The notes under the pieces: generated by a model
What the model was told of the DNA's origin: nothing
The model's input: the letters and a program-made list of their open reading frames with translations, nothing else
Databases searched by the model: none
In this document: positions 1-4,115 of the stretch, one piece after another
How the letters are laid out: each line of letters begins with the position of its first letter
How positions within the stretch are numbered: the first letter of the stretch is position 1
Program-made: the position numbers and the translations under genes
UHGV virus genome: UHGV-1763989
Direction: 5' to 3' (one strand)
Length of the DNA: 13,792 nucleotides
Origin: a virus

Positions 1-72
1 AAGCGGATAACGTTCATAGAATTTATTAATCAAAAGTGCTTGATCGAATTTTGTTGCGTCATGATTCTTCAT
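1..72 (-). CDS. Partial CDS (N-terminus only; continues beyond left edge), hypothetical protein
   Basis: ATG at 72..70 preceded by GGGAGG 8 nt upstream; frame stays open to position 1 (MKNHDATKFDQALLINKFYERYPL...). Not in ORF track because it runs off the window. Confidence 0.4.
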   Translation of the reverse strand, partial: MKNHDATKFDQALLINKFYERYPL

Positions 73-111
73 CCGTACACCTCCCGGAAAACGTGCGCCA
101 CATAGAGCGCA

Positions 112-318
112 CTAATGATTAGCCAGGCTTTCGAACTGGCGGTTAGTCGTATCAAAATCGTCTACTATTTTGTCCAGTATCCCGTAAGAATGAGAAACCA
201 GCGAGTTAAATTCATCATCACTGGTTACCGGTACAGGGACAAATCTAATCCCGGCATGTGCAAGACTGTTTGCCATTTCAAGACATTTGCGTATTTCTGC
301 AGGCGATACTTTATTCAT
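112..318 (-). CDS. Hypothetical small protein (68 aa)
   Basis: ATG at 318..316 with GGAGG 8 nt upstream; same strand and tight packing as neighbours. No recognisable motif. Confidence 0.55.
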   Translation of the reverse strand: MNKVSPAEIRKCLEMANSLAHAGIRFVPVPVTSDDEFNSLVSHSYGILDKIVDDFDTTNRQFESLANH

Positions 319-544
319 GTGTTAGTTCCTCCGGGTAACGTTTCAAAAAATTGGTGTAACCACAATATACGACAGGACCGTCATCACCGTATCTGAACAT
401 AACCTTAAAACCACGACCTGCTCTGTAGACGTTGAGCACTTTTACAAATACCTGTGGTTTATTTACATCACGACAAAACCTTTTATTAATCAGGTCCGCG
501 CGTAGTTTACACAGTAAGTTATCTACACTCATCGCCACCACCAT
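311..544 (-). CDS. Hypothetical small protein (about 73-77 aa; start uncertain)
   Basis: ORF-track start at 553 is a TTG; first ATGs are at 544 and 532. Stop overlaps next gene start (311-318). No recognisable motif. Confidence 0.45.
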   Translation of the reverse strand: MVVAMSVDNLLCKLRADLINKRFCRDVNKPQVFVKVLNVYRAGRGFKVMFRYGDDGPVVYCGYTNFLKRYPEELTHE

Positions 545-668
545 TCGAAACAAAGACGACCGATCCAGAATGCGCGGTACGGCCCGTCATACCACAGTTT
601 GAAATAACCCCACTTACTGTAACTGTTCCAGCTTACGGCGAACCAGTACCCGGCACATTTTAGTTTCA

Positions 669-839
669 TTACGGGTTTTCCTTAATATACTTAGCCAGTT
701 TTTCACCTTTATTCAATTTCTGAATTAAAAGCGTATCAGATAAAGAACATGGTGGATTAACCACTATCCAGTTATTTTCAACAGTAATTTGATGACCAGC
801 AGCACGTAAACGTTTAACCAGTTGTTCTATTTCTTTCAT
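669..839 (-). CDS. Unlisted small ORF (56 aa), hypothetical
   Basis: Hand-translated: ATG 839..837, GGGAGA 10 nt upstream, 2 nt after the stop of the HD gene; MKEIEQLVKRLRAAGHQITVENNWIVVNPPCSLSDTLLIQKLNKGEKLAKYIKENP. Below the 60-aa track threshold. Confidence 0.4.
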   Translation of the reverse strand: MKEIEQLVKRLRAAGHQITVENNWIVVNPPCSLSDTLLIQKLNKGEKLAKYIKENP

Positions 840-841
840 AA

Positions 842-1459
842 TCACAGATCTCCCATCGCTTTAACCAGTGCGTCGTAGTGTTTGTCAAACGCGGTTAACT
901 GGACGTTCGTTAGTTTGTATTTGGCTTTAAACAATTCACGCTCAACAAGCGCGTATAACTCCTGATTACTGGCGTCTGACAGGTGAGCAAGCATGAGTTG
1001 TTTTTCAGCCAGGTATGTTACAGCAAACTTCGGATCGTGTCGGACAATTGAAGAGGTGTTATCCAGCAGATCACACAGTTTTATAGTTTTCACCACAGGT
1101 TCAGCCCGTGATAAATGGTCGATATCCCGTGCTTTACGCTTAACACGGTTGCCGTGGTGTGGACGACTCACATCAGTAAGCTGATCAACATAACGTGCCA
1201 CAGTCTCACCGAACTGCGAACACACATCACCCACGGTCACGGGCGTATCTTCAACGACGTCATGCAGCCAGGCAGCGGTAACCATATCCGGCGTACCACC
1301 ATAGCGTTTAACCAGTTCAGCAACGTTCCGGCAGTGGTTCACATATGGGTCGTTGGTGTACTTACGAAGTTGATCACCGTGTGCTGCTGTTGCGAATTGT
1401 TCAGGTGTCATCATAGTTTTTGATAGTGGTGAAAAACCAAGTTGAAGTTTAGTGCTCAT
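842..1459 (-). CDS. HD-domain phosphohydrolase, RelA/SpoT (Mesh1/small alarmone hydrolase)-like
   Basis: Motifs AAHGDQ ... DPYVNHCRNVA ... AAWLHDVVEDT ... FGETVARYV match the SpoT/RelA hydrolase HD signature. Track start 1465 is TTG; first ATG is 1459, 2 nt after upstream stop, AAAAGGG upstream. Confidence 0.8.
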   Translation of the reverse strand: MSTKLQLGFSPLSKTMMTPEQFATAAHGDQLRKYTNDPYVNHCRNVAELVKRYGGTPDMVTAAWLHDVVEDTPVTVGDVCSQFGETVARYVDQLTDVSRPHHGNRVKRKARDIDHLSRAEPVVKTIKLCDLLDNTSSIVRHDPKFAVTYLAEKQLMLAHLSDASNQELYALVERELFKAKYKLTNVQLTAFDKHYDALVKAMGDL

Positions 1460-1461
1460 AT

Positions 1462-1725
1462 TCAATACCCTTTTAATTTTCTACACTCAGGACAGCGCCA
1501 TCTACCTTTTTGATAAACTCGCGCATGACCACGTTTACATTTATTGGTTACCAGTGATATACCGAGACGTGACGCTTTAATGTGCACCGCTTCAACGTCC
1601 CGGCGAAGGTAATACGCTATTTCGTCCGCACTGATCTTTCCTGCATTAATTTTTAATAACGCCAGATCTCGTGCGGACCATTTCAAACCGTTACGAGGGA
1701 ACCTGTTAGTCGAATACTCATACAC
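1462..1725 (-). CDS. Small HTH DNA-binding protein with C-terminal zinc-ribbon-like Cys/His cluster (start uncertain)
   Basis: WSARDLALLKINAGKISADEIAYYLRRDVEAVHIKASRLGI resembles GcrA/sigma-70 region-4-type HTH; C-terminus CKRGH...CPEC. Track start 1857 is GTG and overlaps the upstream gene by 140 nt; GTG at 1725 has AAAAGG 7 nt upstream, ATG at 1797 is the alternative. Confidence 0.55.
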   Translation of the reverse strand: MYEYSTNRFPRNGLKWSARDLALLKINAGKISADEIAYYLRRDVEAVHIKASRLGISLVTNKCKRGHARVYQKGRWRCPECRKLKGY

Positions 1726-2206
1726 GAACACACCTTTTACGAAGCTGTATGGCGCGATTATTGGCCTGCTGGAGAACCATCTTCCATCCCACAACATCGT
1801 GCATATCAGATGAGCACGACTGATTGGAGAATTTGACCAACATTGTTTCAGCCACACCAGCTAAACTATCAAGTTCGCTGGCCCGTACTTCAGCCAGGAA
1901 AGAGTCGGTGGCTGGAGTTTCAGTGAGCTCACTAACCCAGTCGGGTCCAAATTCTTCTGCGCACATCTTATCGAACTCACGCTCAGATTCTTTCAGCTTT
2001 GCATTCTCCGCCGCCAGAGCCGCGCACTTGGCCTCAAGGTTATCAATCGTGATTCCAGCAGAACGACACTCCCGCAACGCCGTTTCTAGTTTTGATTCAA
2101 GTTCAGCAAATTTACGCGCCAGATATTCAGCGTTTGTTTCGTTAACTTTCAGGTCGCCCGGAATACATTTACCACGAAGAAAACCTTCCATTTCATATAC
2201 AGTCAT
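1718..2206 (-). CDS. Hypothetical protein, predicted coiled-coil (162 aa)
   Basis: ATG start verified; heptad-like Ala/Leu/Glu/Lys-rich segment (AELESKLETALRE...LEAKCAALAAENAKLKESEREF). No catalytic motif recognised. Confidence 0.6.
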   Translation of the reverse strand: MTVYEMEGFLRGKCIPGDLKVNETNAEYLARKFAELESKLETALRECRSAGITIDNLEAKCAALAAENAKLKESEREFDKMCAEEFGPDWVSELTETPATDSFLAEVRASELDSLAGVAETMLVKFSNQSCSSDMHDVVGWKMVLQQANNRAIQLRKRCVRV

Positions 2207-2431
2207 TTAACGCACCTCGACATCAATTATTAAATCTTCTGGTACTGTCACCACAACGCGGTCGTTTTCGCAAAATGGTGACAGCGGTTCCTCTTCCGGT
2301 TGTAAGCGAATGGTAAGTGTTGCCCCGTGGTAATTGATATAGCGTACCCAATACCAATCGTTAAACACTTCAATCTTGTCACCCGGTTTAATATCACGGG
2401 CAACGGTTGGATTTATCAGTCGGATAGTCAT
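2207..2431 (-). CDS. Hypothetical protein (74 aa)
   Basis: ATG start; ATGA overlap with upstream gene stop; same strand, dense packing. Confidence 0.55.
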   Translation of the reverse strand: MTIRLINPTVARDIKPGDKIEVFNDWYWVRYINYHGATLTIRLQPEEEPLSPFCENDRVVVTVPEDLIIDVEVR

Positions 2432-2724
2432 ACTTTCACCTCACGGTTAGAACAGCCACGTTCAATCATCCAATCCTGAACAGGAAAGCGACTACCGAAT
2501 ACTTTTGTTTCTTTATCGTCACAGAAACGCCAGTTTTCCGCTTCAGGCCAGTTTAATTTAACATGGTGTTCTGCCTGTTTTTGATCATCAACATCGACCA
2601 AAGCAACAAGCGTTGCACCTTTTTCAACATGTCCTGTACACCACCACGCGAGAATCTTTTCAGTAGGCGGGTAATTGATCGGACGATAATCATCGGTTGG
2701 TTGATACCAAGAGATCCATTTCAT
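2428..2724 (-). CDS. Hypothetical protein (98 aa)
   Basis: ATG at 2724; TGATG overlap with upstream gene stop. No motif recognised with confidence. Confidence 0.6.
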   Translation of the reverse strand: MKWISWYQPTDDYRPINYPPTEKILAWWCTGHVEKGATLVALVDVDDQKQAEHHVKLNWPEAENWRFCDDKETKVFGSRFPVQDWMIERGCSNREVKV

Positions 2725-2924
2725 CAGAACACCTTTTTAATTAATTGATAGATCAGTACAAGAATCGACAGTACCAAGTAAAAAGGCCAGAAGATCGTGA
2801 TTAGCACAAAACAAATTATTTGAATTTTCCAACCCGGGTTAATTCGTGTTAATTTTGCATCAATGTAATCTAATAATGCATTCAGAACACCCAGTATCAG
2901 ATACAATGACAATAATTTAATCAT
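2724..2924 (-). CDS. Small hydrophobic membrane protein (66 aa, two predicted TM segments)
   Basis: Sequence is almost entirely hydrophobic (LLSLYLILGVLNALL ... IICFVLITIFWPFYLVLSILVLIYQLI); ATG start, coupled to neighbours. Confidence 0.6.
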   Translation of the reverse strand: MIKLLSLYLILGVLNALLDYIDAKLTRINPGWKIQIICFVLITIFWPFYLVLSILVLIYQLIKKVF

Positions 2925-3085
2925 TTCTTTTTACTCCCGGTTAGTTTAGCAATCCAACGATTTTCATTAACGCTGGGAAAACTGTTATTGAACTTACACT
3001 GACGTTCTTCTTCTTCTTTTGTCAACGGTTTAAATTTAGAACGACAGGTCAATGTACCGTAAATTGATGTTAAGTTGTCTGACAT
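2921..3085 (-). CDS. Unlisted small ORF (54 aa), hypothetical
   Basis: Hand-translated: ATG 3085..3083 with AAAGGAG 9 nt upstream; stop TGA overlaps next ATG (ATGA at 2924..2921); MSDNLTSIYGTLTCRSKFKPLTKEEEERQCKFNNSFPSVNENRWIAKLTGSKKK. Confidence 0.45.
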   Translation of the reverse strand: MSDNLTSIYGTLTCRSKFKPLTKEEEERQCKFNNSFPSVNENRWIAKLTGSKKK

Positions 3086-3088
3086 AAA

Positions 3089-3277
3089 CTAGTCTCCTTT
3101 AGTGCGCAGGTGGTTTTTCCAGCGGTTTTGCGCCGCGCTGGGCTTTTTGCAAAAACCACAATCCATCATCCCGTAATATTTTATTAACCCCATTCGTCGG
3201 TTGCTGAGTCTCACCCACTGCCAGACGCCGGGACCGTTTCTACGAACTAACAGAATCTTTGCTTTACGGTTTTTCAT
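3089..3277 (-). CDS. Small basic protein (62 aa), hypothetical
   Basis: ATG start; 4-nt overlap with ParB-like gene stop; Arg/Lys-rich. Confidence 0.5.
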   Translation of the reverse strand: MKNRKAKILLVRRNGPGVWQWVRLSNRRMGLIKYYGMMDCGFCKKPSAAQNRWKNHLRTKGD

Positions 3278-4041
3278 AACCGGTGCTCCTTCAGTGCTTT
3301 TAACGCTTCAAACTGTTCAGCAGTAAGTTCAACCAGGACTTTACCACCTTCCTGGCGGGTTGCAGACCATTCACCACGGATTGCTTCCACTGCAGACCGT
3401 ACCAGTTTAGCGGGTGGACGACGCGTGACTACAGGTTCTTTATCACCTGCTTTAAACTGGCGAATGGCTGCTGATGCGCTGATTTCACCATTCTGGATCC
3501 GGCGTTTAAGTTCCAGCGGCATATCAAGAATATTCAGTTGTTCGTAAACGTGCTGAACGGTTTTACCGACCTGTGTAGCGATCTGCTCAACACTCATGCC
3601 ATATGAACGGAAACGACCGTAAATAACAGCACGTTCAACAGGGGACCACGGTTTACCTTCATTACCTTTTAACAGTGTCAGGGTCTGTTGTAGTTCGTCA
3701 CCGGACGATTCAACAACATCTACTGTCAGAATCGGCGTCCCGGCTTCAATAGCTGCCAATACGCCACGTAAACGATGCTCACCATCCTGGACATACGGAA
3801 CACCGTCAACAACCTGTACCACGATGGGTGGAACGAAATCGCCGTTGGTATAAGCCTGACGAAAGTTTTCAATGTGTGCCAGTGCTGCTTCAGTTTCCCA
3901 GTAGTTGTCGGTAAACACACCGCGTGGGTTATGTCCTGGACGAATCTTGATAATACGCGGATCAATGCGATATGCGTTACCACGTTTTACGTTGGTTTTA
4001 TCGGTATCAGACAGCTTGCGAAGGGAGTTAATGTTAGCCAT
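3274..4041 (-). CDS. ParB-like N-terminal domain protein with HTH
   Basis: ParB-box-like IRPGHNPRG and VQDGEHRLRG (cf. GERRxRA), followed by HTH-like MSVEQIATQVGKTVQHVYEQL. ATG at 4041; own promoter upstream. Confidence 0.8.
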   Translation of the reverse strand: MANINSLRKLSDTDKTNVKRGNAYRIDPRIIKIRPGHNPRGVFTDNYWETEAALAHIENFRQAYTNGDFVPPIVVQVVDGVPYVQDGEHRLRGVLAAIEAGTPILTVDVVESSGDELQQTLTLLKGNEGKPWSPVERAVIYGRFRSYGMSVEQIATQVGKTVQHVYEQLNILDMPLELKRRIQNGEISASAAIRQFKAGDKEPVVTRRPPAKLVRSAVEAIRGEWSATRQEGGKVLVELTAEQFEALKALKEHRL

Positions 4042-4047
4042 TTGTGT

Positions 4048-4076
4048 TTAGCCTCATGTGTGTTAACTGAGGCTAA
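4048..4076. promoter_or_regulatory. Perfect 9-bp inverted repeat (TTAGCCTCA-N11-TGAGGCTAA), candidate operator
   Basis: Arms 4048-4056 and 4068-4076 are exact reverse complements; lies between the predicted -10 and the ParB-like start codon and covers its GAGG ribosome-binding site. Confidence 0.5.
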
Positions 4077-4115
4077 TTATCGGGGAGGTTTGGTAATCTG
4101 TCAAGAATTATTTTA
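4076..4115 (-). promoter_or_regulatory. Sigma70-like promoter with A/T-rich upstream element (internal promoter for ParB-like gene)
   Basis: Minus strand AAAATAATTCTTGACAGATTAC: -35 TTGACA (4104..4099), 17-nt spacer, -10 GATAAT (4081..4076). The 22-nt element is identical to the copy at 11014-11035. Confidence 0.6.

Follow-up and report, generated by a model that had tools for sequence, protein, structure and literature searches.

The small genes of the nin and ea regions of lambdoid phages ("morons") are short and tightly overlapping, mostly lack an assigned function, and are swapped as single-gene modules. Here, we describe three genes with these same traits on the minus strand of a 13,792-nucleotide stretch of the virus genome UHGV-1763989 (the whole stretch is called the window below). 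The three open reading frames (ORFs) are A56, B46, and C54, which encode proteins of 56, 46, and 54 amino acids (aa), respectively. Lambdoid nin regions carry relatives of B46, and the ea/pL region of phage P22 carries DUF2737, the family to which we assign C54. The present case differs from the lambdoid one in that the carrier of the genes is virulent, and they occupy a block downstream of its replication and ParB-like genes.

By megablast, the left 4.2 kb of the window match 9NA/Sasha-like siphophages of enterobacteria, with 96% identity to Escherichia phage KarinMuster_Bas82 (Bas82) and 93–97% identity to AVIO78A, PDP46, Sashavirus 536P12, and BDX09P1 (Sashavirus/Nonanavirus records). From these matches, the source of the window is assigned to a virulent, 9NA/Sashavirus-like siphophage of Escherichia coli. 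In Bas82, A56 and B46 are arranged as in the window, with identical order and overlaps. Its DUF2737 gene directly follows the ParB-like gene and encodes three extra N-terminal residues, whereas in the window a 62-aa gene (3089..3277) is inserted before C54 and a pair of genes for 98- and 66-aa proteins (2428..2924) after it.

As gene calls, A56, B46, and C54 are already known and are ordinary as a discovery. The exact proteins are present in NCBI nr at 100% identity as DAI71403.1 (A56), DAI71402.1 (B46), and DAI71409.1 (C54, named DUF2737), all from a MAG TPA Caudoviricetes record. In Bas82, they are annotated coding sequences for hypothetical proteins that are 92–98% identical to those of the window (Bas82_0089, Bas82_0090, and Bas82_0083, respectively), and the PDP46 record names the C54 homolog "DUF2737 family protein." An earlier note on this DNA (the original prediction) had described the small ORFs as unlisted, which is correct for the ORF list from which it worked but not for these public records. 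The reading that we favor, with a probability of about 0.85, is that A56, B46, and C54 are bona fide accessory genes of a virulent 9NA/Sasha-like siphophage that lie in a coupled block and behave as exchangeable modules.

Evidence that A56, B46, and C54 encode proteins

The three ORFs and their Shine-Dalgarno-type sites are located as follows.

669..839, minus strand: A56, 56 aa, beginning MKEIEQLVKRLRAAGHQITVENNW, phrog_5649, with its ATG start at 839
849..854, minus strand: Shine-Dalgarno-like GGGAGA of A56, 9 nt upstream of the ATG and inside the 3′ end of the HD-domain gene
529..669, minus strand: B46, 46 aa with 8 Trp, MKLKCAGYWFAVSWNSYSKWGYFKLWYDGPYRAFWIGRLCFEWWWR, phrog_34921, with a TAATG overlap with A56 upstream
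679..683, minus strand: weak Shine-Dalgarno-like AAGGA of B46, inside the 3′ end of A56
2921..3085, minus strand: C54, 54 aa, DUF2737 (P22 orf56/HK620 hkaI family), with the invariant motif SFPSVNxN
3094..3100, minus strand: Shine-Dalgarno sequence AAAGGAG of C54, 8 nt upstream of the ATG

The ORFs of 56 and 54 aa, with the GGGAGA and AAAGGAG sites and the junctions that the original prediction had reported for them, were confirmed from the sequence, and the Trp-rich 46-aa frame is present as it had been described. The duplexes of the three sites with the anti-Shine-Dalgarno sequence have energies of −7.3 kcal/mol (A56), −6.1 kcal/mol (B46), and −8.7 kcal/mol (C54); relatives of B46 in other contexts have GGGGA or GAGGTGA at the same distance. 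Between the TGA that ends the HD-domain gene and the start of A56 lies a gap of 2 nt, and at the other end of A56, the TAA stop and the B46 start overlap as TAATG. The B46 stop in turn forms ATGA with the start of a 73-aa gene (311..532). C54 starts after a 3-nt gap that follows the TAG of the gene at 3089..3277, and it ends in an ATGA overlap with the gene at 2724..2924. An in-frame GTG at 845 would make A56 58 aa long; we place its start at the ATG at 839 and not at this GTG because the homology with Klebsiella phages begins at that ATG.

Relatives of the three ORFs were sought by tblastn among 50,697 phage records. Homologs of A56 were found in 5 records (86–98% identity, lowest in Klebsiella phages), homologs of B46 in 5 (down to 56% identity in Klebsiella phage phi_KPN_H2), and homologs of C54 in 14, including 9NA gp82 (down to 54–61% in 9NA and Klebsiella phages). 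For each ORF, the proposed frame is the sole one of six that is free of stops in every relative. The comparison of A56 with the Klebsiella phages gave 19–22 synonymous and 7.5–8 nonsynonymous differences, a ratio of nonsynonymous to synonymous rates (dN/dS) of 0.05–0.07, and 8–10, 0, and 18–20 substitutions at codon positions 1, 2, and 3, respectively. The dN/dS values were 0.19–0.37 for B46 within 9NA-like phages and 0–0.57 for C54. When the observed substitutions were placed at random in 20,000 trials, equally few amino acid changes without a stop were obtained in 0.055% of the trials for B46 (p = 0.00055), and the outcome for A56 was reached in 0 of the 20,000. The conservation and synonymous-site check against related phage genomes, which had been suggested along with the prediction, thus found the frames conserved and under purifying selection in all three cases.

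Codon-usage log-odds scores of 0.49 bits/codon for A56 and 0.34 bits/codon for C54 are in line with those of accepted genes (given as 0.3–0.6 and as 0.42–0.77). The score of B46 is 0.05 bits/codon, equal to that of one opposite-strand frame, and its GC content at third codon positions is 0.61, compared with 0.23–0.43 in most neighboring genes. This near-zero score, together with the odd composition of B46 (its 8 Trp and its third-position GC) and the shortness of all three ORFs (46–56 codons), is what could be said for an explanation in which the frames are chance ORFs or noncoding spacers and 529..669 is an artifact. That explanation is already refuted by the comparative data and has almost no remaining probability, as the lack of stops is frame-specific in all relatives, selection is purifying with synonymous sites saturated, the randomization p values are 5.5e-4 or less, the same 46–52-aa protein recurs in unrelated genomic contexts, and homology blocks stop at the ORF borders. 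If the relatives merely shared one DNA element selected for a noncoding reason, the three codon positions should be equally conserved, and they are not. An explanation by RNA elements was also dropped, as an Rfam search of the window returned zero RNA families.

Based on purifying selection, frame-specific openness, and the coincidence of module borders with ORF borders, we conclude that A56, B46, and C54 are almost certainly real, selected protein-coding genes, which supports the proposal of the original prediction that the small ORFs of this translationally coupled block are genuine. Against this conclusion stand the codon-usage score of B46 and the nature of the support, which is sequence-based throughout. 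In this phage, real small genes could be reliably recognized from simple cues, namely start-stop overlaps, Shine-Dalgarno sites, and the filling of gaps, and the case of B46 shows that intrinsic evidence is not by itself a sufficient reason to discard a frame of odd composition.

Word-indexed protein searches returned close relatives alone (2, 8, and 9 matches), sequence searches of the PDB returned chance-level matches alone, NCBIfam gave no informative match, and the PADLOC defense-system models gave no match. Evidence of an anti-defense role was thus not obtained, and the general remark of the original prediction on host-takeover and anti-defense factors is neither favored nor contradicted by these results. 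A blastn search of 5,426 complete E. coli genomes with the A56/B46 region and one lambdoid B46 locus found no match. The literature searched on DUF2737, hkaI, TubC docking domains in phages, and Trp-rich nin-region proteins yielded nothing useful.

The three genes are exchanged as single-gene modules

Module borders were read from blastn comparisons between the window and its relatives. For A56, B46, and C54, the homology blocks stop at the ORF borders. PDP46 and AVIO78A lack window positions 319–834 (the 73-aa gene, B46, and A56), so that the DUF1382 gene is joined straight to the HD-domain gene. In SP-062, B46 comes immediately after the HD-domain gene, and A56 is precisely missing. Of the A56/B46 region, positions 524–666 alone are common to the window and phi_KPN_H2, and positions 665–839 alone to the window and VLCpiS10a. 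The C54 homology block covers 2918–3086, with variable flanks on both sides. Relatives carry any one of the three genes without the others. Because the homology blocks end at ORF borders and the downstream neighbors of B46 are unrelated to one another, these comparisons show that A56, B46, and C54 are each exchanged singly and independently, in the modular manner typical of accessory genes in phages.

B46 represents a family of Trp-rich small proteins

B46 matches phrog_34921 over its full length (E = 3.9e-18, residues 1–46 on profile positions 1–46 of 46). When 1.84 billion representatives were searched exhaustively with HMMER, four relatives were recovered, and pattern scans added a further 16 loci in IMG/VR and a single prophage of Tatumella morbirosei. 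The resulting family comprises ∼20 distinct sequences of 46–52 aa from 9NA-like phages and from the nin regions of lambdoid prophages, where the gene adjoins Lar, NinB, NinX, or RusA. Its signature is M[KR]IxxPG..GWWxxxSW..W.Y...W.DGP.R..W.G.LxIEWWWR.

Among seven 50-aa members of the lambdoid branch, the proportion of synonymous sites that differ (pS) is 0.66–0.92, which is saturated, as opposed to 0.08–0.30 for nonsynonymous sites (pN), and the differences are concentrated at third codon positions (for example, 13, 2, and 26 at positions 1, 2, and 3). The original prediction had regarded 529..669 as much weaker than the other two ORFs and possibly a frame artifact. The weakness of its codon signal is borne out; the suspicion of an artifact is not, given a conserved family with saturated pS and constrained pN. 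On this comparative evidence, and despite the weak intrinsic signal, we consider it settled that B46 is a selected protein and not a frame artifact.

One database representative (P0014) matches B46 over the first 21 residues; beyond these, it is read in a different frame, and Gly stands in place of Trp. Either this copy carries a frameshift or the sequence, from some metagenome, contains an error. Three IMG/VR contigs of 72–112 kb (L034–L036), which are much larger viral contigs, contain divergent relatives that are 38–42% identical to B46 and whose first codon seems to be one for Leu (LKIKLPG...), suggesting that this branch uses a TTG or CTG start or has a longer N terminus.

The AlphaFold2 (AF2) model of B46 is an all-β protein (a β-meander) with a predicted local distance difference test score (pLDDT) of 79.9. 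When alternate residues of the strands are read from the sequence, Tyr-31, Ala-33, Trp-35, Leu-39, Phe-41, Trp-43, and Trp-45 fall on one face and Arg, Glu, and Cys on the opposite face. Because a 46-residue monomer cannot bury a fully aromatic face, B46 might function through oligomerization or through binding to a partner or a membrane interface, a suggestion from the model that we regard as tentative. Several observations count against it: the model was built from 5 sequences, no meaningful match was obtained when it was compared by Foldseek with the PDB (E ≥ 6), and no conserved neighbor that could be a partner was found across 20 loci, where the downstream genes belong to unrelated families. 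An apparent "MVVAM..." likeness among the ORFs downstream of B46 was rejected as an artifact, as the ORF caller had extended its calls through the conserved end TGGTGGTGGCGATGA.

Cationic Trp-rich peptides typically sit at membrane interfaces. This background, together with the composition of B46 (17 of 46 residues aromatic, a net charge of about +5, and an invariant C-terminal WWWR), is consistent with a membrane-active peptide with a role in superinfection exclusion, lysis timing, or toxicity, as opposed to a soluble binder. We consider this unlikely, as the sequence has no hydrophobic transmembrane stretch, signal peptide, or lipobox, AF2 predicts a compact β-meander, and the gene resides in accessory regions of the replication/recombination type (nin) and not in lysis cassettes.

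At 14 of 17 loci, the 3′ end of the B46 gene is the same DNA, TGGTGGTGGCGATGA (WWWR-stop; 529..545, minus strand, in the window), and the ATG embedded in it serves as the start codon for the next gene, which is unrelated from locus to locus. The octamer GGTGGTGG within TGGTGGTGGCGATGA is one base off Chi (GCTGGTGG). TGGTGGTGG is also one base off Chi, a likeness to which we give no weight because WWW has no other possible coding sequence.

The predicted fold of A56 resembles docking domains

A56 matches phrog_5649 with E = 8.9e-11 (residues 1–55 on profile positions 1–57 of 63). Its AF2 model has a pLDDT of 90.8 and an α-β-β-α-α topology (helix 2–13, strands 17–21 and 24–28, and helices 33–42 and 47–54). 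The β-hairpin docking domains of nonribosomal peptide synthetases (NRPSs) and polyketide synthases (PKSs) capture a short peptide tail by β-strand addition. A56 is predicted to have the same topology as these TubC_N-type domains (TubC, 2JUG; EpoB, 5T7Z; the Kj12 N-terminal docking domains, 6EWS-U; AerJ, 8AQQ), which are of similar size (∼55 residues) and have a sequence pattern in register with its own. Docking domains are located at the N termini of NRPS/PKS subunits and bind the C-terminal tail of the subunit upstream. The 56 aa of A56, by contrast, form a complete protein that stands alone, and no synthetase is encoded nearby in the phage operon. The comparison is further limited by weak profile similarity and the lack of a Pfam match.

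In a Foldseek search of the PDB, 8 of the 14 best matches of the A56 model were NRPS/PKS docking domains (EpoB, Kj12A/B/C, AerJ, and the condensation-domain protein 6cgo), with TubC at rank 38 and query-normalized template modeling (TM) scores of up to 0.70. Against BFVD, the best matches were phage proteins of 58 and 61 aa (TM score 0.84, probability 1.00), and one phage protein whose annotation includes a TubC N-terminal docking domain matched with probability 0.99. An nr entry for an A56 homolog likewise carries a name taken from an NRPS docking structure, given by an independent annotator. When A56 was aligned by hhalign with real docking-domain sequences recovered from PDB alignments, a match over 37 columns was obtained (p = 6.6e-4), with the elements helix, Gly, hairpin, Pro, and helix in register.

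Other results weigh against the docking-domain likeness. The alignment behind the AF2 model is shallow (9 close sequences), the Foldseek E values against the PDB are weak (0.7–9), the hhalign probability is 27%, and none of 9 A56 homologs matches Pfam TubC_N at E ≤ 10. A profile search of the PDB with A56 also returned no docking domain. We therefore describe the link between A56 and docking domains as a fold resemblance, for which homology is plausible and membership in the family unproven. Separately, an N-terminal match of A56 to SpxO in NCBIfam was rejected as chance (17.5 bits against a cut-off of 107).

Because its predicted fold is like that of domains that capture peptide tails, A56 could by analogy be a small adaptor or inhibitor that binds a peptide tail, a possibility that we hold loosely. 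A less probable alternative is that A56 is a small nucleic acid–binding or regulatory protein and that its docking-domain likeness is a coincidence of a very small fold. Convergence is common among small α/β folds, and the nonsignificant E values of the PDB matches (0.7 or worse) and the missing TubC_N match fit this alternative. It accounts less well for PDB matches that are consistently of one fold class, for BFVD matches at probabilities of 0.99–1.00 that include the TubC_N-annotated phage protein, for the name given by the independent annotator, and for the register of the hhalign elements; moreover, neither a helix-turn-helix nor a basic patch is evident in A56.

C54 is a divergent DUF2737 protein

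C54 narrowly passes the gathering cut-off of Pfam DUF2737 (PF10930; 25.1 bits against 25.0) and matches phrog_1117 with E = 3.7e-6. Its close homologs have precomputed PF10930 matches and are named DUF2737 by NCBI. C54 (54 aa) can be aligned end to end with the 56-aa ST104 orf10 (the homolog of P22 orf56/HK620 hkaI) at 28% identity, with SFPSVNxN invariant, and both are encoded in an early operon. From these sequence comparisons, C54 is a divergent member of DUF2737.

The two settings of the family differ. In P22-like temperate phages, DUF2737 lies just downstream of abc2 in the pL early-left operon, whereas here, in a virulent 9NA-like siphophage, it lies downstream of ParB-like genes. In the window, C54 follows the ParB-like gene and the 62-aa gene, and the typical DUF2737 context is not found; genomic context is not part of the Pfam definition of the family. 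No published function for DUF2737 was found in the literature searched.

Possible modes of action

None of the three proteins has enzyme-like features. All three would act by stoichiometric binding to another macromolecule, a step that we propose with low confidence, as we do any specific function for A56, B46, or C54. The remaining interest lies in two uncharacterized families of small proteins with predicted structures, the Trp-rich β-meander of B46 and the stand-alone docking-domain-like fold of A56. In a broader proposal based on the models, which we consider rather improbable as a whole, B46 would define an uncharacterized family of 46–52-residue Trp-rich mini-proteins, with no PDB counterpart to its β-meander, in virulent 9NA-like phages and in the lambdoid nin regions of Enterobacterales, and A56 would be a stand-alone phage copy of the NRPS β-hairpin docking fold; either could be an inhibitor that clamps a host protein (such as a defense or DNA-metabolism factor), through an aromatic face or through β-strand capture of a peptide tail. 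Direct tests are feasible, as Bas82 is 96% identical, carries all three genes, and is available in the BASEL collection.

Organization and expression of the minus-strand block

The minus strand carries every gene from ∼10,900 down to position 1. A56, B46, and C54 are all located inside the last part of this series, the main features of which are the following.

1..4041, minus strand: tightly packed block of ∼14 genes, from the ParB-like gene to the last gene, which starts at 72 and runs off the window
3274..4041, minus strand: ParB-like gene, first gene of the block
1718..2206, minus strand: Ea22-like coiled-coil gene, 162 aa, phrog_614, block member
842..1459, minus strand: HD_4-domain phosphohydrolase gene, block member directly upstream of A56
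112..318, minus strand: DUF1382 gene, block member
4076..4104, minus strand: σ70-type promoter-like site TTGACA-17-GATAAT (11 of 12 consensus positions), within the gap of 71 nt that precedes the ParB-like gene

The block holds many ORFs of 46–98 codons, and its members are mostly short accessory genes that are mosaically common to 9NA-like and lambdoid phages. From the ParB-like gene to the last gene, 12 of the 13 junctions measure −8 to +3 nt and the remaining one measures 39 nt.

The 71-nt gap upstream of the ParB-like gene is the sole sizeable gap of the region, and the AVIO78A record annotates a promoter at the place homologous to 4076..4104. This site is a probable candidate for the promoter of the ∼14-gene block with all three ORFs. 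Because the junctions are tight and this near-consensus σ70-type site lies upstream of the ParB-like gene, the block is probably transcribed as one operon by host RNA polymerase, and transcription would start at this host-type promoter. Speaking against this assignment, the site is a consensus match alone, and promoter-like sites are not in excess in the window (8 found against 10.5 expected in shuffled sequence). Translation of A56, B46, and C54 would proceed from their own Shine-Dalgarno sites and, because the junctions measure −8 to +3 nt, by termination-reinitiation coupling.

The same extremely tight junctions, and the TGGTGGTGGCGATGA end that supplies the ATG of the next gene at those 14 of 17 B46 loci, could be taken to mean that the ORFs are "relay" frames, in which the passage of ribosomes keeps downstream genes coupled and unmasked and the peptides themselves are functionless. 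Such a relay would need no particular amino acid sequence, yet A56 has a dN/dS of ∼0.06, B46 has a pN of 0.08–0.30 at saturated pS, and specific residues are invariant. No relay is needed either, because relatives without one or other ORF have the neighboring genes joined directly. This explanation is accordingly very improbable, and we retain the reading of the three ORFs as accessory genes with selected products.

Other genes of the block

Several neighbors of the three ORFs were also examined. The Ea22-like gene (1718..2206) has 77–80% nucleotide identity over ∼330 nt with the lambdoid phages HK629, HK106, HK75, mEp506, and PhiR12, which indicates a fairly recent exchange between the virulent lineage and temperate lambdoid phages. 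The adjacent ORF at 1462..1857 (minus strand, 131 aa by mechanical call) shares 140 nt with this gene and has almost certainly been called too long; its homologs in PDP46 and AVIO78A are 87–88 aa long, matching a GTG start at 1725 or 1731. Its protein has a Cys-rich C-terminal stretch (CKRGH...CPEC) and no Pfam, informative PHROG, or NCBIfam match.

The start of the HD_4-domain gene, the product of which resembles RelA/SpoT-type hydrolases, is ambiguous, as the ATG at 1459 gives 205 aa and the Bas82 annotation matches the ATG at 1411, which gives 189 aa. The public names of the protein conflict (metal-dependent phosphohydrolase, polyphosphate hydrolase, and (p)ppGpp synthetase).

The basic 62-aa gene between the ParB-like and DUF2737 genes (3089..3277, minus strand) matches phrog_1380, phrog_12350, and phrog_9263, with E values down to 7.5e-41, and is present in AVIO78A and absent from Bas82 and PDP46. 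The pair of genes at 2428..2924 (minus strand) is inserted relative to Bas82, PDP46, and 536P12, and neither protein matches PHROG or Pfam. The 66-aa protein has two hydrophobic stretches and is a probable small membrane protein, and the gene for the 98-aa protein has 83% nucleotide identity with Klebsiella phage phi_KPN_H2.

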